Of a stretch of 64,000 nt of DNA, positions 3,943 through 62,140 are shown piece by piece. This stretch comes from a virus (taxonomy: Duplodnaviria; Caudoviricetes), in IMG/VR virus record IMGVR_UViG_3300046167_000869, positions 1,045-65,044 of that record; one strand, given 5' to 3'. The notes under the pieces were generated by a model that made no database searches, was not told the DNA's origin, and saw only the letters and a list, made by a program, of their open reading frames with translations. Both the position numbers and the translations under genes were made by a program. Position 1 is the first letter of the stretch. Each line of letters starts with the position of its first letter.

Positions 3943-6792
3943 ATGGCAACTCTATATTCATCAGGCGCGAGTACACCGGACGCGACCGAGAGCACCGCAG
4001 GTAAGCTCAGGATCTCGACAGCTCTTGAGGCGACCACCGGGACCAATGACACAACCGCGATGACACCTGCAAAGGTCGCCGCCGCGATCAGCGCCGGTTC
4101 GGGCGGTATAACAGGCGCGCTAGTCTATCGCGGATCATATGACGCCTCGACCGCATCCCCAGACCTCACCACGGCGAGCAAGGGCGATTTCTATTTAGTG
4201 TCAGTAGCCGGCGCGCTCGACGGTGTAGCGTTGAGTGTAGGTGATCACGTAGTATTCAATCAAGACGCAGCAAACCCTGTAACGGCGGCGGTGTTCGATA
4301 AGATTGATTCTACGGACGCGGTGAGCTCTGTCAATGGACAGACAGGAGTGATCACACTGACAGCAAGCGATGTAAACGCGCTAGCAAGTGGTGATAACGT
4401 GAGTGAGCTCACGAATGACTCAGGCTATCTGACAAGCGCACCTGTAACAAGCGTGAACACTCAGACAGGAGTGATCACACTGACAGCAAGCGATGTAAAC
4501 GCGCTAGCAAGTGGTGATAATGTAAGCGCGCTCACGAATGACTCAGGTTATCTGACAAGCGCACCTGTAACGAGTGTGAACACTCAGACAGGAGTGATCA
4601 CACTGACAGCCTCAGATGTAGGAGCGCTAGCGACAGGCGACAATGTAAGCGCGCTCACTAATGATAGTGGCTATCTCACCTCTACACTGAGCGCTGATAT
4701 TATCGTAGACACAGACGGCGCTTATGATCTCGGCACAGAGAGCGCGCGCTTAGGTCTCACCTTCAGCGACCTAGACGGCGCGGTAACATTCAAGGCGAGC
4801 AACGCGAGCGGCGCCCAGATTGCCAAGGGGCAGCCTGTATACATTGCGGGCGTGAGTGGAGACGTGCCAACGGTCGCGCTCGCAGACGCAGACGCGGCCG
4901 CCATGCCTTGCGCCGGTTTGGCAGCAGAGACAGCGAACTCAGGCGCGGCTATCCGGATTGTGAGCTTTGGGAACTTGACCGGCGTAGACACAAGCGCGTT
5001 TAGTCTTGGTGATACGCTCTACATAGACACGACAGCGGGAGCGCTGACAGCGACACCCCCGGCGGGTGAGACAGCCAAGCTTCAGAATATAGGAAAGGTG
5101 ATACGAGTTCACGCGACAAGCGGAATCATCAAAGTAGGGGGAGCCGGTAGAAGCGCCGCGACGCCGAACCTTGACCAGAATAAAATTTTCTTGGGAGACA
5201 GCAACAACCGCGCGGTGAGCACAGCTCTAAGCACCGTCGCGCTGAGCTCATTCAGCAATGATTTAGGGCTTGCAGCGGTCGCGACATCAGGCGCGTATAG
5301 CGATTTGAGCGGAACACCAACGCTAGGCACAGCGGCGGCACTTGATGCGGGTACAAGCGTCTCAAATGTGGTGCAGCTCGATGGCTCGGCGCGTCTACCT
5401 GCGGTTGATGGCTCACAGCTGACTAACCTACCAAGCGGAGCAACTCAGCTCAACGATCTCTCAGACGTGACGATCACAGGAGCAGCTACAGGTGAGGTTT
5501 TACGCTACAGCGGCGCGGCGTGGGTAGATGCACAGCTAGCCTATGGCGACCTGAGCGGAACACCGACACTCGCAACGGTCGCGACATCAGGCGCGTATAG
5601 CGATTTGAGCGGAACACCCGACCTATCCATCTATGCCCCACTTGCATCACCCGCGCTAACAGGTACGCCGACCGCAGACACCGCAACCGCGGGAACGAAC
5701 ACGACTCAACTCGCGACGACCGCGTTTGTCACGACCGCAGTCGCGGCGGGTGGTGGTGGTATATCAAACATCGTCGAGGACACGACGCCGCAACTCGGCG
5801 GAGATCTCGATCCGAACGGCTTCGGCGTATCGGGTGATTTGTCGCCGTCTGCGGCGAACACCCACGCTTTAGGCTCCGCCGATGCAGAGTGGAGTGATCT
5901 ATATCTAGGCGACGGGGCGGTCATTAACTTTGGTCTTGATCAAGATATTAAGCTAACCCATGAGCACAACTCAGGGCTCGTACTTGAGAAAACCCCCGGC
6001 TCGGCGTTCTACCCTAGGCTCACGTTGCGAAATCAGGACTCGGGCTCTCTCTCTTACGCCGAGCTTAAGTTCGATTCTCAGTCCACATCACCCGCCACGA
6101 ATGATTTTATCGGGCGCGTGTTGGCGAGCGGCAAAAATAGCGCGGGCGGAAACTTCGATTACTCTAAAATTGAGACGAGAATCGCGGACGCGACGGACTC
6201 CACGGAGGCGGGGCGGCTTCTGCTTCGCGTCGGTACAGGGGGAACAGTCGCGGGCAACTCAGGGACAGACGCGCTCGACATCCACGGATCGAGCGGCGGC
6301 GACATCGTGGTCAAGATCCCCGAGCATGACGGCGCGAGCTCGGGCCTCATGCTCGGCTCCACTCTGCTCACATCGACCGCCGCAGAGCTGAACCTCTTGG
6401 ACGGCGGGGCGAGCGTCGGCTCATCAATCACGATCTCAGACACCGACGGCTTTGTTGTAAACGACGGGGGCGTGTCAAAGCTGATCCCCGCGAGTGATCT
6501 CAAGACATACGCGGCGGGTGGCGGCGGCGGTGGCGTCGAGTACAGCGCTATCTCTTCGGCCACTACAGCGGCAATCAACTATCACTACTCATGCACAGGA
6601 ACATTCACACTCACGATCCCCACGTCTCAAGCGGCGGGTTCATCCATCAGTATTAAGAATATGGGAACAGGCACAATCACACTAGATCCGCAAACATCGA
6701 ACATCGACGGGTCAAGCACTGACTATACGATGGACGTACAGTTTGGGGCGCTGACCTTGGTCAGCGATGGCACAGGATGGGAGATCATCTAA
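3943..6792 (+). CDS. Long mosaic fibre/decoration protein (949 aa)
   Basis: Ala/Thr/Ser/Gly-rich, with typical phage fibre motifs SVNGQTG, LTNDSGYLT, VATSGAYSDLSGTP, APLASPALTGTP and VEDTTPQLGGDLD. Confidence 0.85.
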   Translation: MATLYSSGASTPDATESTAGKLRISTALEATTGTNDTTAMTPAKVAAAISAGSGGITGALVYRGSYDASTASPDLTTASKGDFYLVSVAGALDGVALSVGDHVVFNQDAANPVTAAVFDKIDSTDAVSSVNGQTGVITLTASDVNALASGDNVSELTNDSGYLTSAPVTSVNTQTGVITLTASDVNALASGDNVSALTNDSGYLTSAPVTSVNTQTGVITLTASDVGALATGDNVSALTNDSGYLTSTLSADIIVDTDGAYDLGTESARLGLTFSDLDGAVTFKASNASGAQIAKGQPVYIAGVSGDVPTVALADADAAAMPCAGLAAETANSGAAIRIVSFGNLTGVDTSAFSLGDTLYIDTTAGALTATPPAGETAKLQNIGKVIRVHATSGIIKVGGAGRSAATPNLDQNKIFLGDSNNRAVSTALSTVALSSFSNDLGLAAVATSGAYSDLSGTPTLGTAAALDAGTSVSNVVQLDGSARLPAVDGSQLTNLPSGATQLNDLSDVTITGAATGEVLRYSGAAWVDAQLAYGDLSGTPTLATVATSGAYSDLSGTPDLSIYAPLASPALTGTPTADTATAGTNTTQLATTAFVTTAVAAGGGGISNIVEDTTPQLGGDLDPNGFGVSGDLSPSAANTHALGSADAEWSDLYLGDGAVINFGLDQDIKLTHEHNSGLVLEKTPGSAFYPRLTLRNQDSGSLSYAELKFDSQSTSPATNDFIGRVLASGKNSAGGNFDYSKIETRIADATDSTEAGRLLLRVGTGGTVAGNSGTDALDIHGSSGGDIVVKIPEHDGASSGLMLGSTLLTSTAAELNLLDGGASVGSSITISDTDGFVVNDGGVSKLIPASDLKTYAAGGGGGGVEYSAISSATTAAINYHYSCTGTFTLTIPTSQAAGSSISIKNMGTGTITLDPQTSNIDGSSTDYTMDVQFGALTLVSDGTGWEII
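4327..4683 (+). repeat. About 3 tandem copies of a 123-bp (41-aa) coding repeat
   Basis: SVNxQTGVITLTASDVxALAxGDNVSxLTNDSGYLTS starting at 4327, 4450 and 4573, with near-identical DNA. Confidence 0.92.
5276..5618 (+). repeat. Exact 43-bp direct repeat pair 300 bp apart
   Basis: cggtcgcgacatcaggcgcgtatagcgatttgagcggaacacc at 5276-5318 and 5576-5618. Confidence 0.9.
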
Positions 6793-32608: not shown

Positions 32609-33553
32609 ATGGCAACCATCCAAGAGCGCGGGTATGATGTCCAGTACCTCAAAAACACTTATCTGTTAGGTGTGGATTTAACTCTTGATGATGGTAGCCC
32701 CTACCCTGACACCATCTTCACAACGTCCATCGAGCAAGCGGCGCGCGCTGTTAGCGACGAGCTCGGCTTAGTCTTTGACGTGCAGACATTCTCTGAGCGA
32801 CACGATAAGGAACCAGACGCGGCCCCCGCGTGGCATCCGATCCGGTCACGTTATCGCCCGTTGATCGATGTCGAGGCGCTCAACATTGTGTACGGCAACA
32901 GCACGACGCGCGCAGAGCTCCCCCCCGAATGGGCCCAGATTACTGAGCCTATGGCCGGTCAGGTCCATATCGTACCCACGACAGAGGGCGCTTCAAGCTA
33001 TATTGTAGCGGGAGGTACACCTGTTATCTTAGGGCTTGGAGGGCTCAGCGCGCAGTATTACATACCGGCGTATTTTGAGCTCGATTACCGCGCGGGCTTC
33101 CCTTACTACACAGGCACTATCGCGATCAGCGCGGGCGAGAGCTCAGTAGAGGTGAGCACGCCCCAAAGGTTCGTTGACCGCTACGACGTGAAGGCCACAG
33201 GGGCCACTGTGGGCGCTAAGAGACATGATAAGTTCACCTTGAGCTTGAGCGCGCCCGCAACACAAGACACAGACATCTCATGGACGATTGACACATTACC
33301 CCAAGACATCGCGCGCGCCGTCATGCTTAAGAGCTCGCTCTTAGCGCTAGACGTTGCAGGTGATTTGATCGCGGGCGCAGGTCTCGCGATGGTGAGTACC
33401 TCGATGGATGGATTGAGCCAGAACATCAACACCACGGCGAGCGCGACGAACTCAGGTTATGGAGCGCGTGTACTCCAATTCACCAAAGAATACAAGGAGT
33501 TGCTCGCGACCCTTAAGGCCACCTATCGCGCTATGAACATCATGGCGCTGTGA
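32609..33553 (+). CDS. Head-tail adaptor/neck protein
   Basis: YLLGVDL, ERHD, LDYRAGF and STSMDGLSQ..TTASATNSGYGARV; position after the capsid gene. Confidence 0.75.
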   Translation: MATIQERGYDVQYLKNTYLLGVDLTLDDGSPYPDTIFTTSIEQAARAVSDELGLVFDVQTFSERHDKEPDAAPAWHPIRSRYRPLIDVEALNIVYGNSTTRAELPPEWAQITEPMAGQVHIVPTTEGASSYIVAGGTPVILGLGGLSAQYYIPAYFELDYRAGFPYYTGTIAISAGESSVEVSTPQRFVDRYDVKATGATVGAKRHDKFTLSLSAPATQDTDISWTIDTLPQDIARAVMLKSSLLALDVAGDLIAGAGLAMVSTSMDGLSQNINTTASATNSGYGARVLQFTKEYKELLATLKATYRAMNIMAL

Positions 33554-33562
33554 GGTGAAACC

Positions 33563-34373
33563 ATGATTCTAGGCTCCCGTATCCCTCCAAAACTGAACCC
33601 GCGCGCAGATTTTAAACCTGAGCAATTCCGCAAAGTGATCATCTCACACGGGATGGACATTAGGTGGGAACAGGCCGCAGAATGCCCATGCTCGCAGACC
33701 ACGGGCGCGCATGGTTTCAGTCTGACAGGAGCGAGCGGCGACGCCGAACAAGCGCGCGTTGATTGCCCAGCGTGCCACGGCAAAGGCTACCTCTACCACA
33801 GCGCGCAGACAATCAGAGCGGTAGTTACAGGCGCGCGAAAAGAGGAGCAGAGACACGGCCCCGCAGGCGCTACCGAATACGGACGCGGCCAAATTGGGAT
33901 CACGTTACTACCTGAGCACTTACCGACATACGGCGACCGCCTCACGATCATGGATAGCGCGATGATCTACCGTGAGACACTCAAGCGCGGCTCAGGCGCG
34001 ACAGACACCCCGCGCTACCCTATCTCCCCTAGATCACACGATCTTGAGGGCGGCCAAGTGAGCTTCGGCGTGAGACATTTGATACCGGCCAACGCTCAAG
34101 GGATCGTAGACCCCGCAGGCGCGCTTGAGGAGGGCTCAGATTTCACGGTTGACGGCGAGGGCGCTATTGAATGGATCAATCCACCCAATGAGGGCGACCG
34201 CTTCAGCGTGACCTATTACGCGCACCCCACATATATAATCACGAACCATCCCCACGCGGTGCGTGATACCTTATGTGAATTTCAAGGCCCCCGCGCCCTA
34301 TCATGCAGAGCTCCCAGTGTATGCCGAGGCCCAGCTTGAGTTCTACGGCACCCCTGAAGGGACCGCGCAATGA
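33563..34373 (+). CDS. Head closure/neck protein (indel near 34272)
   Basis: WEQAAECPC and CPACHGKGY; the shifted frame continues to a TGA overlapping the next ATG. Confidence 0.7.
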
Positions 34374-54792: not shown

Positions 54793-54856
54793 CGGTTATT
54801 TGAGATTCATTAAATAACCGCTTGACAGTGGCGAAGTCAAGCGCTTATTTTGAATC
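54793..54856. promoter_or_regulatory. Symmetric divergent promoter/operator region
   Basis: Inverted repeat aaataaccgcttgac-N9-gtcaagcgcttattt places TTGAC(A/T) on both strands between divergent operons. Confidence 0.6.
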
Positions 54857-54888
54857 CCCTCTCCACCCTAGCTAAAAGTGAGTCACTC

Positions 54889-57468
54889 ATGATTCTAGGC
54901 GCTCTCCCTATCTCCTATTATCCCGCTCATCGAAGGTACGCGCCGCCGCGCGCGTGGCGACCCGGTGAAGCACACCCTAACTCAATGAAAACACTCGACT
55001 TTAGAGAAGCGCTCTCTAAGGATTGGTGCGCTGTCACTAACAACGCTCAAGAGGTCTGGCTCTACCCTCTCGCCGCTCAAGGCGGTGATGTCCTGAGACC
55101 TTCTAAGCAAGGCTCACCTGATATCATCAAGCGCGAGCTCAACATAGATCTCTTTGTCTCAGGTGTCCTGATCGACCTCGACGACCGAGGCGCCCACGGT
55201 GACGACTCGGCGCGCTCCGGCGAAGAGTTTTTTAACACGGTTGAGCGCGTGCTCACTCCGCTGATGAGCCTGCCGGGTGCGTGTTATTATCGCACCTTAC
55301 GCGGCGCGCGGGTGGGGCTCATCTTTGCTCAACCTGTAAATCTCGCGCTAGGTGAGCGCGCGCGGCGCGGGTTCTTTGCTCAAGTAGAGAGCATGTTTGA
55401 GGCTCATGAGTCTGTAGAGGTAGACCGCGCAAGTATCGAGGTTTCAAGAGGTTTCGCCGCTCCTATGATCTACAAGCGCGGTGAGCGGATCACAAGCGCT
55501 CAAGCTCAGCTCAGGCTACATGAGAGAGACACGCCTTACGCGTACATTGAAAAGCTCGCTGAGTATTGGACAGAACAGCTCAAACAAGTGAGCCAAAGCG
55601 CGGCAGACAGTGAGCGCCGACCGAAGGCGGCCCAGAGCGCGACAGCGCGGGAGGGCGCCGGAGGTCAAGCCGCACGCGCGCCGAAGGGGGATAAGAAACC
55701 GGCTGTGATCATCCCGCACGATCTACAGACACGCGAGCTTGACCGCTCGCAGGCACATGATCTCTTCAGAGGCTCAGTCTTCAAGCTCTCTCATTGGGTA
55801 CAGGACGAGGCTCTGTTAAGAGACCTGAGCACCGTTCTAGATCGCCACCTATGCGCCGGTAGACGTGCCGAAGGTGGCGAGCTCACGCGCTACGTCGATC
55901 AGGCCCTAGACCTCGCGACCATCCACGAGGATGTACAGATAGCGGAAGGGATCGCACCACCTACACCAGTTGACCTGCTCGATTTTCCCGAGCTTCAGCC
56001 CTTGCGCCGCGCCTTCTCAGCGCCTCTCGATGATCTCAAAATCGCTCAAGCCGTACTCGAATCAATGGGCGATGAGCCCGCCCCGATATGGCATGGTGAA
56101 GGGCTCCGACGTTATGAGCATGAGCGCGGGATATGGCAGCTTTACAGGCCCAGCAGGCTAGAGCGCATCTTCCTCAAGTTGGAGGGCGCGCAGTACGAGA
56201 ACGATAAAGGCGAGTGGCGCCCCATCGCGATCAACAACAAACTGATCACAGGAGGCGTCAAGATGCTCGCGAGCGTTAGCGGCGCAGGGGAGACCGAGAC
56301 GCCGTTTGACAGCGCGCCTATGGGCGTGGTGTTAGGTGCACACTTTATCAGCGCGAGCTTGACAGGGCTCAAAGTACAACCGCGCGGGCCTCAGTTCTAC
56401 GCGATTCACGCGCTTGATTATGAGCTCTCACCTCAACTGTTATCCTATTGGGAGGATGAGGACACAGGCGCAGAGCCACGCGAGCCCACGACGTTTACGC
56501 GCTCATTCCTCGCGCGCTCTCTTTACCGCGCCCCAGAGGACGATGAGACAGAGCAGACTATTAGAGACGAGATCAACGCCAAGATCATCACTATTGGTGA
56601 ATGGTTAGGGCTCGCGCTACTCGGGATGTGCACACGCGAAGCTACCGCGCTTGTAGCACACGGTCCCGGCTCCAATGGCAAGAGCGTTTTAGCCTCTCTC
56701 ATCTCTGATCTCTTCGGGGCAGAACGCACCGCGCACTTAGCGCCGCAGGCGATGAAAGAGCGCTTTAGTAGAGCTCAGCTCTTCGGCGCGGCTGTGAATG
56801 TGGTCTCTGAGATGCCTGAGTCTGATCTGTTAGAGTCAGACACTATCAAGGCCATGATATCCGGTGACGCAATCACGGTTGAGAACAAAGGGGAGAAGCC
56901 ATTTAGGATGATCCCTAGAGCCGCTCACTTTTTCGCGGCTAACACATTACCAGCGTCAAGAGATAGGTCTCATGGTCTATGGCGCCGGTTGATCCCTATC
57001 GAGTTCCATCACATCTTCACCCGCGCAGACAGAGACCCTGATCTGCTCGATAAGCTCAGGACAGAGTATGATTTACTCGTCCCGTGGGCGCTCAACGCGG
57101 CGCGTCAATACATCGAGCGCGGAGGCTATAAGCACCAAGACCACATTGAACAGTGGCGCGGTAAGTGGCGACGTGAGACAGACTCAATCAGCGCGTTCAT
57201 TGACGCGCGCTGTGAGATGCTCACATCACCCCACGACGAAGACGCGCTAGACTCAGAGACCCTATGGCAGCGCTTCAGAACTTACGCTGAAGACGTAGGG
57301 CAGACAGGCGCCGCGCGCATGAGCCTTGTAGCCTTCGGGCGCTCTCTTGCCTCACAGCCGGATCTTATTAAAGCGCGCAAACGCAAGGGCGGGCGCCAAC
57401 TGACATTCTACAACCTCAAACTCAAAGACACCGCGCCCCCGAAGCGCGACACATGGAGCATCCGATGA
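54889..57468 (+). CDS. Primase-helicase (AEP-like N-terminus, D5/P4-type SF3 helicase, C-terminal winged helix)
   Basis: LIDLDD, GPGSNGKS Walker A, VVSE, IKAMISGD, FAANTLP and GLWRRLIPIEF. Confidence 0.88.
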   Translation: MILGALPISYYPAHRRYAPPRAWRPGEAHPNSMKTLDFREALSKDWCAVTNNAQEVWLYPLAAQGGDVLRPSKQGSPDIIKRELNIDLFVSGVLIDLDDRGAHGDDSARSGEEFFNTVERVLTPLMSLPGACYYRTLRGARVGLIFAQPVNLALGERARRGFFAQVESMFEAHESVEVDRASIEVSRGFAAPMIYKRGERITSAQAQLRLHERDTPYAYIEKLAEYWTEQLKQVSQSAADSERRPKAAQSATAREGAGGQAARAPKGDKKPAVIIPHDLQTRELDRSQAHDLFRGSVFKLSHWVQDEALLRDLSTVLDRHLCAGRRAEGGELTRYVDQALDLATIHEDVQIAEGIAPPTPVDLLDFPELQPLRRAFSAPLDDLKIAQAVLESMGDEPAPIWHGEGLRRYEHERGIWQLYRPSRLERIFLKLEGAQYENDKGEWRPIAINNKLITGGVKMLASVSGAGETETPFDSAPMGVVLGAHFISASLTGLKVQPRGPQFYAIHALDYELSPQLLSYWEDEDTGAEPREPTTFTRSFLARSLYRAPEDDETEQTIRDEINAKIITIGEWLGLALLGMCTREATALVAHGPGSNGKSVLASLISDLFGAERTAHLAPQAMKERFSRAQLFGAAVNVVSEMPESDLLESDTIKAMISGDAITVENKGEKPFRMIPRAAHFFAANTLPASRDRSHGLWRRLIPIEFHHIFTRADRDPDLLDKLRTEYDLLVPWALNAARQYIERGGYKHQDHIEQWRGKWRRETDSISAFIDARCEMLTSPHDEDALDSETLWQRFRTYAEDVGQTGAARMSLVAFGRSLASQPDLIKARKRKGGRQLTFYNLKLKDTAPPKRDTWSIR

Positions 57469-58179
57469 CAGAGACACCTTTACCCCCTGAGCAACATCAG
57501 TGTTAAACTCGTGGATTACTACGGATGCGACCGGCGCCCCGTGTTGGCCGCCAGAGTCTCAACGCTTCTCGATGACATGGAGCCTGATCAAGAGCGTGAT
57601 CTCAAGCTTGCGAAATATCTCTTAGAGCATGGACACACGAGCCCTTATGAGCACTGCGGCGCTACCTTCATCATCGAGGCGCCTATCTATGCCGCGCGCC
57701 AGATCATGAGACACCGCACCTTCAGCTACAACGAGATGAGCCGCCGTTACACCTCTGATGACGTGAGCTTTTACGCCCCCCAACACCTCTATCAGCAGCA
57801 TGAGCGCCGCTTACAATGTAGCTCTCATGCCACATTAGAGCCCGCTCAGGAGCTCGCTTTACTTGATTCCCTTGAGGCGCACTATCAACGCTCACTTGAG
57901 CTCTATCACGATATGTTAGAGAAGGGCGTGAGCCGAGAGCAGGCGCGTTTAACGCTTCCCGTCGCTCAGATGACTAAGTTTTATATGTCGGGTAACTTGT
58001 TAAATTATATCAAGTTTCTCAAGCTACGCCTTGATCACCACTCACAGCGCGAGACGCGCCTAGTAGCTCACGCCATGTACCTGCACCTCTCTCAGTGCTT
58101 CCCTGTTATCATGAAATTATGTGCAGATCTTGGGCTTTTAGGGCACGCGCTACAAAAACAAGAAGAGGAGACACCTTGA
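57465..58179 (+). CDS. thyX: Flavin-dependent thymidylate synthase (indel near 57485)
   Basis: GHTSPYEH, RQIMRHRTFSYNEMSRRY (RHR-X7-S), REQAR and LRLDHHSQRE. Confidence 0.95.
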
Positions 58180-58400: not shown

Positions 58401-58542
58401 CGAGGCTGAGCGACTACGCGCCGAGGTCGCGCGCATGACGCGCCGCGTTGAGCATGAGCTCGCGCGTCCGGGGTATGTTTCATGTGAAACAAAACGAGCG
58501 TTCAACGCGCTGAAGAAGAGGATACATGACACAGACACATGA
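58393..58542 (+). CDS. Small hypothetical protein (49 aa) not in the ORF track
   Basis: MSNEAERLRAEVARM...; overlaps both neighbours. Confidence 0.4.
   Translation: MSNEAERLRAEVARMTRRVEHELARPGYVSCETKRAFNALKKRIHDTDT
58476..58491. other. parS-like centromere site
   Basis: TGTTTCATGTGAAACA, one mismatch from the palindromic bacterial parS TGTTTCACGTGAAACA. Confidence 0.65.
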
Positions 58543-58814
58543 GGAGCGTTTAGCGTGGCAGCGGGACTATGAACGCCGCCCCGAGGTACGCGCGCGAAAA
58601 CGCGCACAGAGACAAGCCGAGCAAGCGCCGCGCGTTAGCCGCAGAGACACCTACCGAGCGAGCGGAGCGCCTCGCCTATCAAAGTTGGTACGCCCGAGAG
58701 CGTCGCGCGCAAGAGACACCGACCGAGCGAGCGGAGCGCCTCGCGAAACGCCGCGCGTATTATCGCGCTAGAAAAAACAAGAGCGAGACGCGTATTATCG
58801 CGCCCCGCTCATGA
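58526..58814 (+). CDS. Basic protein with 23-aa STPR-like repeats (one indel near 58620)
   Basis: GAGG RBS and MTQTHEERLA start joining to ETPTERAERLA x2 with a 69-bp period (58643 and 58712). Confidence 0.6.
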
Positions 58815-58932
58815 TCTATCTATCACCCCACCGTATCGCTCTCTCCAGCGCGAAAGGCAGAGCCCATATTTAACATAGCCTTATATGTGTTACAATAGCC
58901 GGAACCACAAATAACGGGAGGTAGTCAAGCAC

Positions 58933-59787
58933 ATGAGACCCCCGCTCACGCCCCGAATGAGAGAGCGCCGGCTCACTATCGTTCTTCTCGATTTGATAGG
59001 CTCTACGGCTTTTGTGGAGCGTGTAGGGCCTATGCGCGCGGCGCAATGGCTCCAATATCATGATCGTCTTGCACGCGGGCTTATTTATCGCTATCAAGGA
59101 CGCGAGATAGACCGCTCAGATGGTTTCCTGCTCAGCTTTGAGCGCCCCATTGACGCGCTCAATTTTGCGCTCGCGTATCAAATCCAGATCCCTCCAAAAA
59201 CCTATCTGAAAACCCGAATTGGGATACACGTTGGCGCAGTCGTAGAGATTATACAACATGAGCTCGATGTGATGATTGGTGTTAAACCCGTAGAGCTGGA
59301 GGGCATCTCAAAGAATATAGCCGCGCGCACTATGAGCTTATGTGGCCCCGGTCAGGTACTCTTGACCGAAGCCGCCTACAAAGCGGTGCGAGGGAGAGCT
59401 AACGCCCACACGCCCAGCGGCACGCGCTACGCGCTTGCAGGTCTCTACGCCTTTAAGGGCGTCGCAGAGCCTCAGATCATTTACACGGTAGGTGTCACCA
59501 CGGAGAGCCTACAGCCTCCACTATCGACCGAGAAGGCGCGGCGCGTCGGGGGCCCGAAAAAAATCAAGAGCCGGCTCAGCCACATGAGAGCGCTAGAGCT
59601 CGCAGAGTGGGGCCTTTATCGCGCGGTAATGATCACCTCTATAATCTACCTCTATATTTTCACAAGGTGGATCGCGCGACCATCAGCGCGGCGTTATTGG
59701 GGTATTGACCACGCCCCGTTTACATGGATTGATCATGTGAGTGAGGCGCTGCACTACATCATTGAGACTCTGATTTCGGGAGGCTAG
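58933..59787 (+). CDS. Class III nucleotidyl (adenylate/guanylate-type) cyclase with a C-terminal TM helix
   Basis: LLDLIGST (Asp1), EIDRSDGFL (Asp2), RIGIHVG, KNIAAR (Asn/Arg), PGQVLLT and FKGV; GGGAGG RBS. Confidence 0.88.
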   Translation: MRPPLTPRMRERRLTIVLLDLIGSTAFVERVGPMRAAQWLQYHDRLARGLIYRYQGREIDRSDGFLLSFERPIDALNFALAYQIQIPPKTYLKTRIGIHVGAVVEIIQHELDVMIGVKPVELEGISKNIAARTMSLCGPGQVLLTEAAYKAVRGRANAHTPSGTRYALAGLYAFKGVAEPQIIYTVGVTTESLQPPLSTEKARRVGGPKKIKSRLSHMRALELAEWGLYRAVMITSIIYLYIFTRWIARPSARRYWGIDHAPFTWIDHVSEALHYIIETLISGG

Positions 59788-59791
59788 ACAC

Positions 59792-60301
59792 ATGACACAG
59801 GCAGAGAGCGCGAGCTCACAGACAGAGAGCGCGAGCTCACAGACAGAGAGCGCAGAGAGCGCGAACTCACTCACTCTCACTGAGCTCAAAGCGCGGCGAG
59901 GGTGGCTGTTTAGCGTGATCTATCTAGGGCTCATCTTAGGGCTCATCTTTTTTCTCTCCTTCGTTGAGATCGTGGAGAAAAACCGCGATGTTTTAGTAGG
60001 GATTCTTGGTGTGCTCACAGGCTCGATCTCTTCAATGATCGCGGTAGCGTCAGGGCGCGACCCCGCAGAGATCGAGGAGCTTAAAGGGGAGCTCAGCTCA
60101 CAGCAGGCAGACCGCGCCGCGCTCATCGCTCGACTACGAGACGCCCAGATCAGCCTTCAGCTCAAGAGCGATCAGGTCACGCAACTACAAACGCTCATGA
60201 TCTCAGAGCTCGCACAGCTTAGAGCGCGACAGCTTACAGAGAGTGACGTTGAGCTTGATCCCCACATAAAAGCGTGGCTTCCTGATGAGGAGAAAAAATA
60301 A
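59792..60301 (+). CDS. Two-TM membrane protein with a C-terminal coiled coil
   Basis: WLFSVIYLGLILGLIFFLSFV and VLVGILGVLTGSISSMIAVA; N-terminal ESASSQT repeats (21-bp unit); starts 4 bp after the cyclase. Confidence 0.8.
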   Translation: MTQAESASSQTESASSQTESAESANSLTLTELKARRGWLFSVIYLGLILGLIFFLSFVEIVEKNRDVLVGILGVLTGSISSMIAVASGRDPAEIEELKGELSSQQADRAALIARLRDAQISLQLKSDQVTQLQTLMISELAQLRARQLTESDVELDPHIKAWLPDEEKK

Positions 60302-60419
60302 GAATGAGTGAAATGAGCGCGGCTGTTAAAAAATGCATTCAGGGTGTCTCGGGCTAAATGGTTTTGTAGCGCCGCGCTCTAAAGACAAATACCACACCGC
60401 AGAGAAGGAAAACAGAAAA

Positions 60420-60881
60420 ATGAAAACACAACACCTCAGAGCCCGCATGCGCCAAGCTCAGGCGCTCTCAGAGCTCAGCTCATGCACACGGCGCAAAGTA
60501 GGCGCGCTGATCCTCGACCCCAGTACGATGAGCATCATCTCAGATGGATATAATGGCCCGCCGCGCAAAGGCCCCCGTGCTTGTGGTGGTGATGTATGCC
60601 TACGTGATCAGCTCAAGATCAGGAGCGGAGAGCAACCCGCGCTAGGCTGCTATCACGCAGAGCATAACGCAATCTTAAACGCCGCCCGACATGGCGCGCG
60701 GACATTAGGTACATTCATGATCTGTACAACAGCGCCTTGTGAGAGTTGCGCTAAGGCGATTTACCACGCGGGTGTTACTCACCTGTATGTGCCCGAAGAC
60801 TCTTACACCACCGCCGCCGGTCTTGATTTCTTGGAATCTTACGGCGTTCAGGTTTCATGTATTACCGTAGGTAATACATGA
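60420..60881 (+). CDS. dCMP deaminase
   Basis: SCTRRKVGA, GYNG, HAEHNA and PCESC zinc motifs. Confidence 0.93.
   Translation: MKTQHLRARMRQAQALSELSSCTRRKVGALILDPSTMSIISDGYNGPPRKGPRACGGDVCLRDQLKIRSGEQPALGCYHAEHNAILNAARHGARTLGTFMICTTAPCESCAKAIYHAGVTHLYVPEDSYTTAAGLDFLESYGVQVSCITVGNT
60855..60881. repeat. Perfect 12-bp hairpin with a GTA triloop
   Basis: tcatgtattacc-gta-ggtaatacatga. Confidence 0.85.
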
Positions 60882-60900: not shown

Positions 60901-61223
60901 GTGTGCAGGATGTGTGCAGGATGTGTGCAGGATATTTGCACCTATCCTGCACGGCCTATCACTTTGATATTGCTATAGTTTCTGAAGAGTGTGCAGGATG
61001 TGTAAGATAAATGACAACTCTTACATGAGAGTGCAGAGAAGAACGCTTCAGAAATGACACAGTGACTCAGACACACAGCGTAAATACACACACATATATA
61101 TAAAGAAATGCCAGATATCCTGCACATCCTGCACACACATAGAAAAGTGCAGAGATATCAAAGGGATAGACCGTGCAGGATGCCTGCATCCATCCTGCAC
61201 ACATCCTGCACACATCCTGCACA
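60901..61223. other. Putative replication origin: about 110-bp imperfect inverted repeat built from TGTGCAGGA iterons
   Basis: The left arm (gtgtgcaggat)x3... mirrors the right arm ...(atcctgcacac)x3 around an AT-richer spacer; the region is intergenic. Confidence 0.75.
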
Positions 61224-61253
61224 GACCCGACACACCCCAAAGGAGACAAACCC

Positions 61254-61670
61254 ATGAACCCTAAACCCTATAGAGGCCCCCGCAGCTCACCACGCTCAAA
61301 GAGCGGGCCACCTTCAGAGGCCGATATACAGAAGGAGTTAGCGAAGGCGCTTGATGAAGCCGGCCTGTTATGGACAGCGACCGCCAACGGAGGCAAGCGA
61401 GACAAGCGAACAGCTGCGAGCCTCAAGGCGCAAGGGCTCAAGCCCGGTGTTCCAGATGTGCTCATCTTCACTCCGCCACCTTCGGGGATCGGTTGCGGCA
61501 TGGCTATTGAACTCAAGCGCGACGCCGGACAAGGCAAACAGCGCGGGCGACTCTCTCCACATCAACGGATATGGCTAGAGGAGTTACGTACGCTAGGTTG
61601 GAGAGCTGAAGTAGCGTATGGTCTCGACCATGCACTTGAGATTTTGAGAGCGGCAGGCTACAAAATATGA
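61254..61670 (+). CDS. VRR-NUC domain nuclease
   Basis: SEADIQ, ANGG.R, GLKPGVPD, IELK and LSPHQ..W; AAGGAG RBS. Confidence 0.9.
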   Translation: MNPKPYRGPRSSPRSKSGPPSEADIQKELAKALDEAGLLWTATANGGKRDKRTAASLKAQGLKPGVPDVLIFTPPPSGIGCGMAIELKRDAGQGKQRGRLSPHQRIWLEELRTLGWRAEVAYGLDHALEILRAAGYKI

Positions 61671-62140
61671 TCATGACTATCGAACGAGTCTTAAATTTGA
61701 TCTGCCTCTTGAGCGTGGAGATGAGCGCGACTGAGAGCGGAGTCAACAGCCGCCGATATTATGCCCGTCACGCGCAGGCAGATCACGCCGTCTGTTTGCG
61801 CGTGGCGCGCCGAGCCCACCGACAGGGCCTAGATTCTTACGAAGCGGTCGCGGTCAGTCAGCACGAGACGCGGCATCGGGCACACCTCGTAGGATCGAGC
61901 GGCGAGAGAGGGCCTATGCAAGCGCTCCCTAAATATTGGAGCCGTAAGGGAGATAAGGACTACATCGACGCGGGCCTTAGAGCGTGGCGCTATTATCGCT
62001 CTCGGTCAGCTTCAACCAGAGAGGCCGCCGGTAAGTTTAACGGGGCGGGCCAGCGCTCAAAATATGCGCGCACCATTGCGCGCAATGTTCGTACCTTGAA
62101 GGATCAGACAGCATGGATATCACCACCCCCCCGAATGTGA
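61667..62140 (+). CDS. Lytic transglycosylase (SLT-like) with a hydrophobic N-terminus
   Basis: AVSQHET (catalytic Glu), GERGPMQ, IDAG and AAGKFNG. Confidence 0.72.
   Translation: MIMTIERVLNLICLLSVEMSATESGVNSRRYYARHAQADHAVCLRVARRAHRQGLDSYEAVAVSQHETRHRAHLVGSSGERGPMQALPKYWSRKGDKDYIDAGLRAWRYYRSRSASTREAAGKFNGAGQRSKYARTIARNVRTLKDQTAWISPPPRM

Follow-up and report, generated by a model that had tools for sequence, protein, structure and literature searches.

A mobile two-gene cassette of marine phages pairs a predicted tail-anchored class III cyclase with a membrane protein of a lysis-cassette family

In uncultured marine phages we find a two-gene cassette in which the gene for a class III nucleotidyl cyclase with a predicted C-terminal membrane helix is joined to that for a small protein with two transmembrane (TM) segments. 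It is described here from positions 58933-60301 of a 64,000-nucleotide stretch (hereafter the window) of the IMG/VR virus record IMGVR_UViG_3300046167_000869. The cyclase gene (58933-59787, + strand; 284 aa), recognised by its open reading frame (ORF), homologues, fold and residues, is followed after a spacer of 4 nt by the partner gene (59792-60301, + strand; 169 aa), which encodes a 2-TM, long-helix membrane protein, the long form of a phrog_9990-like lysis-cassette family. Cyclase and partner make up a mobile cassette whose two genes are strictly linked. As to its function we lean, tentatively and with somewhat less than even confidence, towards a membrane complex in which the tail-anchored, active cyclase and the holin-family protein would couple cyclic-nucleotide synthesis to a holin-type lesion and thus serve the phage's own lysis control.

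Cyclic-nucleotide signalling in the conflict between phages and bacteria has so far been known as a weapon of the host (Pycsar, CBASS and type III CRISPR), and phages counter such host systems by nucleases and sponges. Here the synthase is borne by the phage itself, in a previously undescribed form that appears tail-anchored and is tied to a holin-family protein. Our literature searches, which did not cover supplements, found no paper describing the cyclase/2-TM pair; nor did we find one naming TIGR04510 (the family model closest to the cyclase, see below) or 'peptide modification system cyclase', using phrases such as 'phage-encoded adenylate cyclase', or joining holins or lysis timing with a nucleotide cyclase in bacteriophage.

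Linkage and mobility of the two genes

Searching from the cyclase, we found 26 viral loci; the partner adjoins the cyclase in 24 of these, and the other 2 end inside the cyclase gene. The search from the partner side yielded 301 viral-contig loci that encode a partner relative, and in 79 of the 79 new loci kept from it the cyclase gene is adjacent on the same strand, with the order cyclase then partner in 78. With hidden Markov models (HMMs) we recognised both genes, adjacent and on the same strand, in all of the 103 related viral loci, which represent 75 distinct protein pairs (the cyclase-found and partner-found sets share some contigs). When called from the first start codon, the two ORFs overlap in 73 of the 75 distinct pairs; in the remaining two the genes are either 1 nt apart or separated by an inserted 237-aa ORF. 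Furthermore, the pairwise identity matrices of cyclase and partner correlate (r = 0.69). Co-occurrence of the two genes had been named in the initial annotation of the window as a point to check, together with the prospect that the 2-TM gene is an unlinked holin-like gene. The second half of that prospect has stood, since the family is indeed holin-like and found in lysis cassettes; the first has not, since the long form is never unlinked from the cyclase.

The cassette occurs in several genome contexts. In phages of about 35 kb with terminal repeats (e.g. G002, 42% G/C) it is flanked by the large terminase and a Mu-like portal gene, and it is present on viral contigs of 65 to 162 kb as well. 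As this strict adjacency is kept in several contexts, the cassette travels as one unit. In marine viromes the pair is common, with 718 cyclase clusters and 1440 partner clusters among homologues at E ≤ 1e-3, in addition to the 301 loci mentioned above. The sequencing runs listed with the cassette sequence were DNA runs from metagenomes of seawater, estuary, sponge and marine plankton, and 2 of 24 runs contained at least half of the sampled words; no RNA sequencing runs with the sequence were listed. A tblastn search of 50,697 deposited phage records gave one weak match to the cyclase (29% identity, E 1e-6) and none to the long or short partner forms; hence there is no cultured carrier in that collection.

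Three loci show particular arrangements. The inserted 237-aa ORF (positions 5814-6527 of locus L013, a complete 36-kb phage) has a DPPY motif and looks adenine-methylase-like by eye; in locus L005 a Pfam N6_N4_Mtase gene stands just before the cyclase gene; and a 96.6-kb viral contig (L020/L098) holds the sole locus with the partner gene before the cyclase gene.

The catalytic domain and its base-specifying residues

A Shine-Dalgarno sequence, GGGAGG (58916-58921, + strand), lies 11 nt before the cyclase ATG. The gene encodes a cyclase homology domain with a conserved LQPP..EK extension (residues about 10-205; 58960-59547, + strand), delimited by a VIA alignment over residues 9-195, by the TIGR04510 match over residues 15-204 and by conserved residues. 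Pfam Guanylate_cyc (PF00211) recognises the domain marginally, with 22.1 bits against a cut-off of 21.9, and PHROGs gave no match for the protein. By phmmer it matches Rv1900c with E 2e-11 and the trypanosomal and Ma1120 cyclases with 1e-7 to 3e-9. An AlphaFold2 (AF2) model built with 24 homologues (pLDDT 87) was matched by Foldseek to Ma1120 and Rv1900c (E 2e-13, target TM score 0.89) and by VIA to Rv1900c (Z 23.7, rmsd 1.8 Å over 171 residues), so that AF2, Foldseek, VIA and Pfam agree on a class III cyclase fold.

The catalytic residues are complete. We aligned 91 homologues with 52-77% identity to the window protein: all 91 have D20, D63, N128 and R132, the whole block R57-F65 (REIDRSDGF) is invariant too, and at least 90% retain K175. 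The metal-binding Asp residues of Rv1900c and Ma1120 correspond in alignments to D20 and D63, and the transition-state N..R of the trypanosomal cyclases to N128 and R132. The initial annotation, which had described a class III cyclase with both metal-binding Asp residues and the N..R motif intact and with an atypical base-specificity region, is thereby confirmed on the first point, and we infer from the conserved set that the enzyme is probably active.

It was right on the second point, too. Canonical class III cyclases use a Lys/Asp pair for ATP and a Glu/Cys-type pair for GTP; the phage protein has the motifs EIDRSDG and VELEG at the corresponding region. We placed the Lys position through the 'KDA to EGY' mutant chain of Ma1120 (PDB 5d0g, 5d0h) compared with the wild type, and through HMM alignments: the ATP-specifying Lys of Ma1120 falls opposite D60, in a hairpin that is one residue shorter in the phage protein. 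The Asp of the trypanosomal DYYG motif, which we take to be the adenine-specifying residue, aligns with E121 of VELEG. The canonical purine-specifying pair is thus absent, with D60 at the Lys and E121 at the Asp position, and the product, whichever nucleotide it derives from, would be made without the Lys/Asp pair for ATP.

A divergent subfamily (L112, L122 and L151, on viral contigs of 65, 162 and 34 kb, respectively) varies at just these positions. Its cyclases show 36-38% identity and keep all four catalytic residues, with SDSSDGF or IDSSDGH replacing EIDRSDGF, R61 changed to Ser and E121 changed to Ser or Asn; their partners are still 55-58% identical. Given altered base positions next to a retained catalytic set, the pocket appears to vary while the chemistry is conserved, and the subfamily may use a different nucleotide.

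The membrane tail of the cyclase

The catalytic part is followed on the + strand by a basic linker (GGPKKIKSR.., residues 206-221; 59548-59595), a C-terminal hydrophobic, presumably membrane-spanning helix (residues about 222-246; 59596-59670) and a tail of 38 aa (59671-59784). The linker was defined by its K/R count and conservation: residues 195-221 hold 8 K/R versus 1 D/E, and it is conserved in two homologue alignments (A1 and A3). For the helix, AF2 and hydropathy agree, the AF2 helix spanning residues 216-247. In this copy it is moderately hydrophobic (best 19-residue Kyte-Doolittle mean 1.28); across the 91 homologues the median is 1.86, with 74 of the 91 at 1.6 or above, which upholds the C-terminal TM helix proposed earlier. 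Because the basic stretch lies on the N-terminal side of the helix, the simplest topology would be a protein that crosses the membrane once, with its catalytic domain cytoplasmic and its 38-residue tail outside.

The partner protein

The partner gene has a Shine-Dalgarno sequence of its own, again GGGAGG (59778-59783, + strand), inside the end of the cyclase gene. Its ORF, two hydrophobic segments and long helix agree with the 2-TM coiled-coil gene that had been noted as starting 4 bp after the cyclase. From hydropathy (segments 35-64 and 66-88) and invariant columns we place TM1 at residues about 38-60 and TM2, with a GxxxGxxxS pattern, at about 67-88, connected by an invariant NRD loop (59903-60055, + strand). 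In the AF2 model (pLDDT 64) a long helix follows at residues 91-144 (60062-60223, + strand), and the N-terminus is disordered and repeat-like. Positions invariant among 62 homologues cluster in the NRD loop, on the small-residue face of TM2 and in the helix block A106-I120. This block, ADRxALIARLRDAxI, has 13 of its 15 positions invariant in the 62 long forms and is the most conserved part of the partner, outside the membrane; the post-TM2 helix is the best candidate for a docking or receiving surface.

Database searches on the partner returned little. No Pfam family was found at E ≤ 0.1 and no PADLOC family, PHROGs gave phrog_9990 only (E 0.0027), and ESM Atlas gave viral hypothetical clusters only; fused or longer forms of the partner were sought without success, which is weak evidence. 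No domain binding cyclic mononucleotides (cNMP) was recognised in the partner, in agreement with the initial annotation, and PF00027 is absent from the whole 65-kb record, the same control search being positive in 11 of 14 control genomes.

Shorter relatives of the partner in lysis cassettes

Searching 1.84 billion representative proteins with a profile, we obtained 111 partner relatives, some of which are shorter (110-140 aa) and laid out alike. Long and short forms align in hhalign with 99.6% probability (E 4.5e-24 over 107 columns), and 5 of 6 short forms match phrog_9990, down to 1.5e-10; the ADRxALIARLRDAxI motif is missing from the short forms. We inspected the gene context (±4 kb) of 80 of the 288 viral loci encoding short forms, which had been collected with a 5-sequence alignment subset. 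A cyclase was found within this distance in none of the 80. A Peptidase_M15_3 or Amidase_2 gene starts at most 100 bp downstream of the short form in 30 of the 80 loci, usually with an overlap of 3-12 bases, an endolysin-type gene starts within 1 kb in 36, and a phrog_3427 holin (1.8e-19) lies within 1.5 kb in 21 (lysis genes were identified by Pfam on cluster representatives, with 5e-22, 8e-15 and 7e-16).

Since short forms adjoin endolysin-type and holin genes, the ancestral setting of the partner family is, to judge from these neighbourhoods, the lysis cassette, where it takes the usual holin/antiholin position. The long form is by all appearances a derived, cyclase-bound branch with its own invariant helix motif after TM2. 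Given this link to a holin family, the likeliest role of the pair shifts from host-type defence to membrane permeabilisation or lysis control.

Among the short-form loci of uncultured marine phages (L160-L239) one layout recurs: the gene for the short 2-TM protein overlaps with that for an M15 peptidase or amidase, and the phrog_3427 holin gene comes next. Upstream in these loci a second pair recurs that has no family: one protein, of 95 aa, has a single TM segment and a coiled coil, the other, of 110 aa, a signal-like N-terminus.

Cellular relatives of the cyclase domain

The family model closest to the cyclase is NCBIfam TIGR04510, 'putative peptide modification system cyclase' (1.2e-48), which bears out the supposed likeness to the domain heading such proteins. 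The phage protein is not a full-length member, as it scores 166 bits against a cut-off of 400 and covers profile positions 7-204 of 814 only. In a collection described as covering 185,579 prokaryote species, scanned at one genome each, we found 53 cellular loci, mostly in Rubrivivax, other Burkholderiales and Xanthomonadaceae. All 53 match the cyclase domain only (residues about 3-205, 34-51% identity); the collection held no full-length relative with both cyclase and membrane tail, and no homologue of the partner (E below 0.3) or of the membrane tail was found near these loci. The one relative whose architecture was examined (L075) is a cyclase-AAA-TPR protein. In nine TIGR04510-like cellular domains the position of the transition-state Asn is occupied by Pro in eight and by Ala in one, with both Asp residues and the Arg kept. 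In two of four cellular loci scanned for neighbours, nitroreductase-family genes lie beside the cyclase.

Possible functions of the pair

In the mechanism that we tentatively favour, the cyclase would be held at the inner membrane by its C-terminal helix with the catalytic domain facing the cytoplasm, and the second gene, apparently coupled to the first in translation, would supply a 2-TM protein of the lysis-cassette (holin-like) family, the two proteins forming one membrane complex by a presumed contact. Cyclic mononucleotide synthesis would be tied in this complex to the opening or blocking of a holin-type lesion, and the device would time or inhibit the phage's own lysis and not act as a host-type defence. 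Control might run either way: the cyclase or its product may gate the partner, or the partner may report the membrane state to the cyclase. If the pair does control lysis, it would add a new layer to the setting of latent period and burst in the ocean. A bolder version, which we regard as unlikely, holds that marine phages time or veto lysis by a self-made, possibly non-canonical cyclic nucleotide that is read by the invariant cytoplasmic helix of the holin-family protein; the helix would then define a new type of nucleotide receiver, unlike the known cNMP-binding folds.

Several points weigh against lysis control. Enzyme activity, product and contact between cyclase and partner are predictions, phrog_9990 is annotated 'unknown function', and in 43 of the 80 short-form loci no lysis gene was recognised. 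In the window the cassette is surrounded by replication and nucleotide-metabolism genes, not by late genes. When HMMs of the lysis genes from short-form loci were run on 107 sequences, namely the window, the 103 long-form loci and L025-L027, they had no match. Likewise, nothing was found for endolysins in the window's own record and five (nearly) complete cyclase-bearing phages with five Pfam families (Phage_lysozyme, Amidase_2, Peptidase_M15_3, Peptidase_M15_4 and Glyco_hydro_108, the last also without a match in the control genomes), of which four were used on the own record, SLT being searched there only. Finally, in the complete phage G002 small membrane ORFs and an ORF that weakly matches an Rz-like spanin (3.2e-5) are found at a distance of about 10 kb from the cassette; the main lysis genes of this phage may therefore be located away from the cassette, and the partner is not necessarily its holin.

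The region concerned (12673-13680 of L247, equal to 32673-33680 of G002) holds membrane ORFs of 102 and 152 aa and an 88-aa spanin-like ORF directly before a dCMP deaminase gene; a dCMP deaminase gene thus follows the spanin-like ORF in G002 and the cassette in the window. Within the window we also considered the ORF 61667-62140 (157 aa, hydrophobic N-terminus) as an SLT-like lysin by motif; Pfam, PHROGs and the SLT search gave nothing, and the candidate was dropped.

Four other explanations have to be set against lysis control. The first, which we consider somewhat unlikely, is host takeover: the phage cyclase would flood the cell with cAMP, cGMP or another cNMP and rewire CRP-type regulators or other receptors, the 2-TM protein serving to anchor, assemble or regulate the enzyme. 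The complete catalytic set agrees with this, as does the distribution of the cassette over several genome contexts in the manner of a moron or auxiliary gene; adenylate cyclases have also been annotated as auxiliary genes, in another context, in uncultured pelagiphages, according to part of PMC9599517. The lack of a receptor domain in partner and phage record fits as well and means that a host receptor is needed; however, none can be named. Host takeover also leaves unexplained why a translationally coupled holin-family partner is obligate in 103 of 103 loci, and why the helix after TM2 is the most conserved part of that partner.

An exclusion or abortive module of the Pycsar kind, distinctly unlikely in our estimate, would have the cyclase sense a competing phage or stress and its product activate the holin-like protein; this would then depolarise the cell or kill it and so exclude superinfecting phages. 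In joining a class III-type cyclase to a membrane effector within one operon of two genes, the cassette would follow the logic of Pycsar as far as described in part of PMC11224242, and the partner family is linked to membrane lesions. Moreover, the hairpin before the second metal-binding Asp has D60 and R61, the residue types of PycC pyrimidine recognition at nearby positions (same part of PMC11224242). On the other side stand the lack of any match to PADLOC models, including PycC and PycTM, at E ≤ 1, a partner without a cyclic-nucleotide-binding domain (CNBD), carriers that look lytic, closest cyclase relatives of the TIGR04510 type and not PycC, and the 53 cellular loci, which match neither membrane tail nor partner.

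That the cyclase domain is a non-catalytic scaffold or a nucleotide-binding, antiholin-like regulator of the partner, and no messenger is made, seems very improbable. The non-canonical base-specifying positions speak for it, together with the loss of the transition-state Asn in the closest cellular relatives; yet the phage proteins keep N128, both Asp residues and the Arg in all 91 homologues and in the divergent subfamily as well, which is hard to explain without catalysis. The last alternative sees in the 2-TM gene nothing more than the holin gene of the phage, placed next to the cyclase by accident. The residence of the short forms in lysis cassettes would lend itself to this idea, but it is scarcely credible because of the 103/103 linkage across phage backbones and insertion sites with mostly overlapping ORFs; in addition, the five (nearly) complete carriers have exactly one strong family member each, always cyclase-linked, and the HMMs from short-form loci recognised no endolysin beside the long-form partner.

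Genomic setting in the window

The source record is a 65,044-base IMG/VR virus contig, 87% complete according to CheckV, of which the window covers nearly all. The carrier is an uncultured marine phage, a myovirus with 55% G/C, whose genes for large terminase, major head protein, tail sheath and baseplate lie on the + strand of the record and those for DNA polymerase and exonuclease on the - strand. A block of replication and nucleotide genes runs into the cassette, with a primase-helicase (54850-57468) and thyX (57511-58179) before it, and a dCMP deaminase (60333-60881) and a VRR-NUC nuclease (61173-61670) after it. Both thyX and the dCMP deaminase gene were recognised, in keeping with the position between them given in the initial annotation; two small ORFs separate thyX from the cyclase gene.

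The cassette had also been credited with an extended -10 of its own. The sequence TGTTACAAT is present at 58888-58896, ahead of the cyclase gene, and with a TTAACA 15 nt upstream it makes up a candidate promoter (58870-58896, + strand), read from the sequence and without statistical support. It is not among the calls of our consensus promoter scan, because the TTAACA is only 15 nt upstream and the scan demands a spacer of at least 16 nt. Promoter-like sites show no excess in the region (3, compared with 2.5 ± 1.4 in shuffles).

Just upstream of this site a terminator-like hairpin of 12 pairs (58781-58810) was scored on the - strand. Between thyX and the cyclase gene lies an 81-aa ORF (58569-58814, with an overlapping frame at 58526-58771) that has no family match. 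It contains a direct repeat of 33 nt (58643-58675 and 58712-58744, 97% identical) that encodes ETPTERAERLA twice, and an exact repeat of 15 nt is found at 58754-58768 and 58789-58803. Homologues of this ORF sit upstream of thyX in the 35-kb cyclase phages.

Comparison with known systems

With the cellular cyclase-ATPase-TPR proteins of the TIGR04510 type (830-1020 aa) the phage domain has EIDRSDGF and the PP..EK extension in common, at 35-44% identity. Unlike them it has no AAA and TPR parts and bears a membrane tail instead, keeps the transition-state Asn where the cellular domains have Pro or Ala, and is accompanied by a partner of which no homologue lies near the cellular genes. A protein of the same architecture as these cellular ones is the 886-aa CYC-TPR protein XC_0250 of Xanthomonas campestris, whose isolated domain makes cGMP and not cAMP according to part of PMC3770947. 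If it should belong to the same subfamily, cGMP would be a candidate for the product of the phage enzyme. XC_0250 has a cNMP-GGDEF protein, XC_0249, encoded next to it; none of the four EIDRSDGF loci scanned (L059, L063, L066 and L070, from Xanthomonadaceae and one unclassified gammaproteobacterium) has such a neighbour.

In structure the phage domain comes closest to the mycobacterial class III adenylyl cyclases Rv1900c (Z 23.7) and Ma1120 (Z 22.6), with an rmsd of 1.7-1.8 Å and 26-29% identity, and it shares with them the Asp/Asp/Arg catalytic geometry. These two enzymes differ in being soluble domains or in having N-terminal partner domains, and Ma1120 has the ATP-specifying Lys where the phage cyclase has Asp60 and the shortened hairpin.

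The closest published case is a cyclase gene on marine phages, read as an auxiliary or regulatory gene and annotated in the curli (T8SS) gene clusters of uncultured pelagiphages; in contrast to our cassette it stands among curli genes, a histidine kinase and FecR, and no 2-TM partner is mentioned in the available part of the source (PMC9599517).

The Pycsar systems (PycC with PycTM or PycTIR) resemble the cassette in the two-gene operon of cyclase and membrane effector, here adjacent on one strand in every locus, in both metal-binding Asp residues and in base residues of a non-purine type; PycC enzymes use an Asp and an Arg for pyrimidine recognition, as stated in the part of PMC11224242 mentioned above. 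Differences are the lack of a CNBD in the phage partner, the anchoring of the phage cyclase itself by a C-terminal helix and the location on apparently lytic marine phages and not in bacterial defence islands. PycC structures were found neither among the 50 VIA matches listed (all with Z of at least 19.2) nor among the Foldseek matches listed. Membership in Pycsar itself, raised by the initial annotation, is rejected in view of the missing PADLOC match, the absence of a CNBD effector, TIGR04510 as the best family and the absence of a full-length relative from the cellular genome collection scanned.

Class II-type holins cross the membrane twice and carry a cytoplasmic tail that is charged or forms a coiled coil, and lysis inhibition is known from RI and RIII of T4. 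The partner matches no holin family model in PHROGs or Pfam, and no endolysin gene was recognised beside its long form with the HMMs from short-form loci; we know of no holin or antiholin paired with a nucleotide cyclase. Like these holins, however, the partner is a small membrane protein whose two TM helices are followed by a hydrophilic C-terminus, a charged helical tail after TM2, and its short relatives lie upstream of, and overlap with, endolysin genes. If its product-reading role should prove true, the partner would be the first nucleotide-gated holin.

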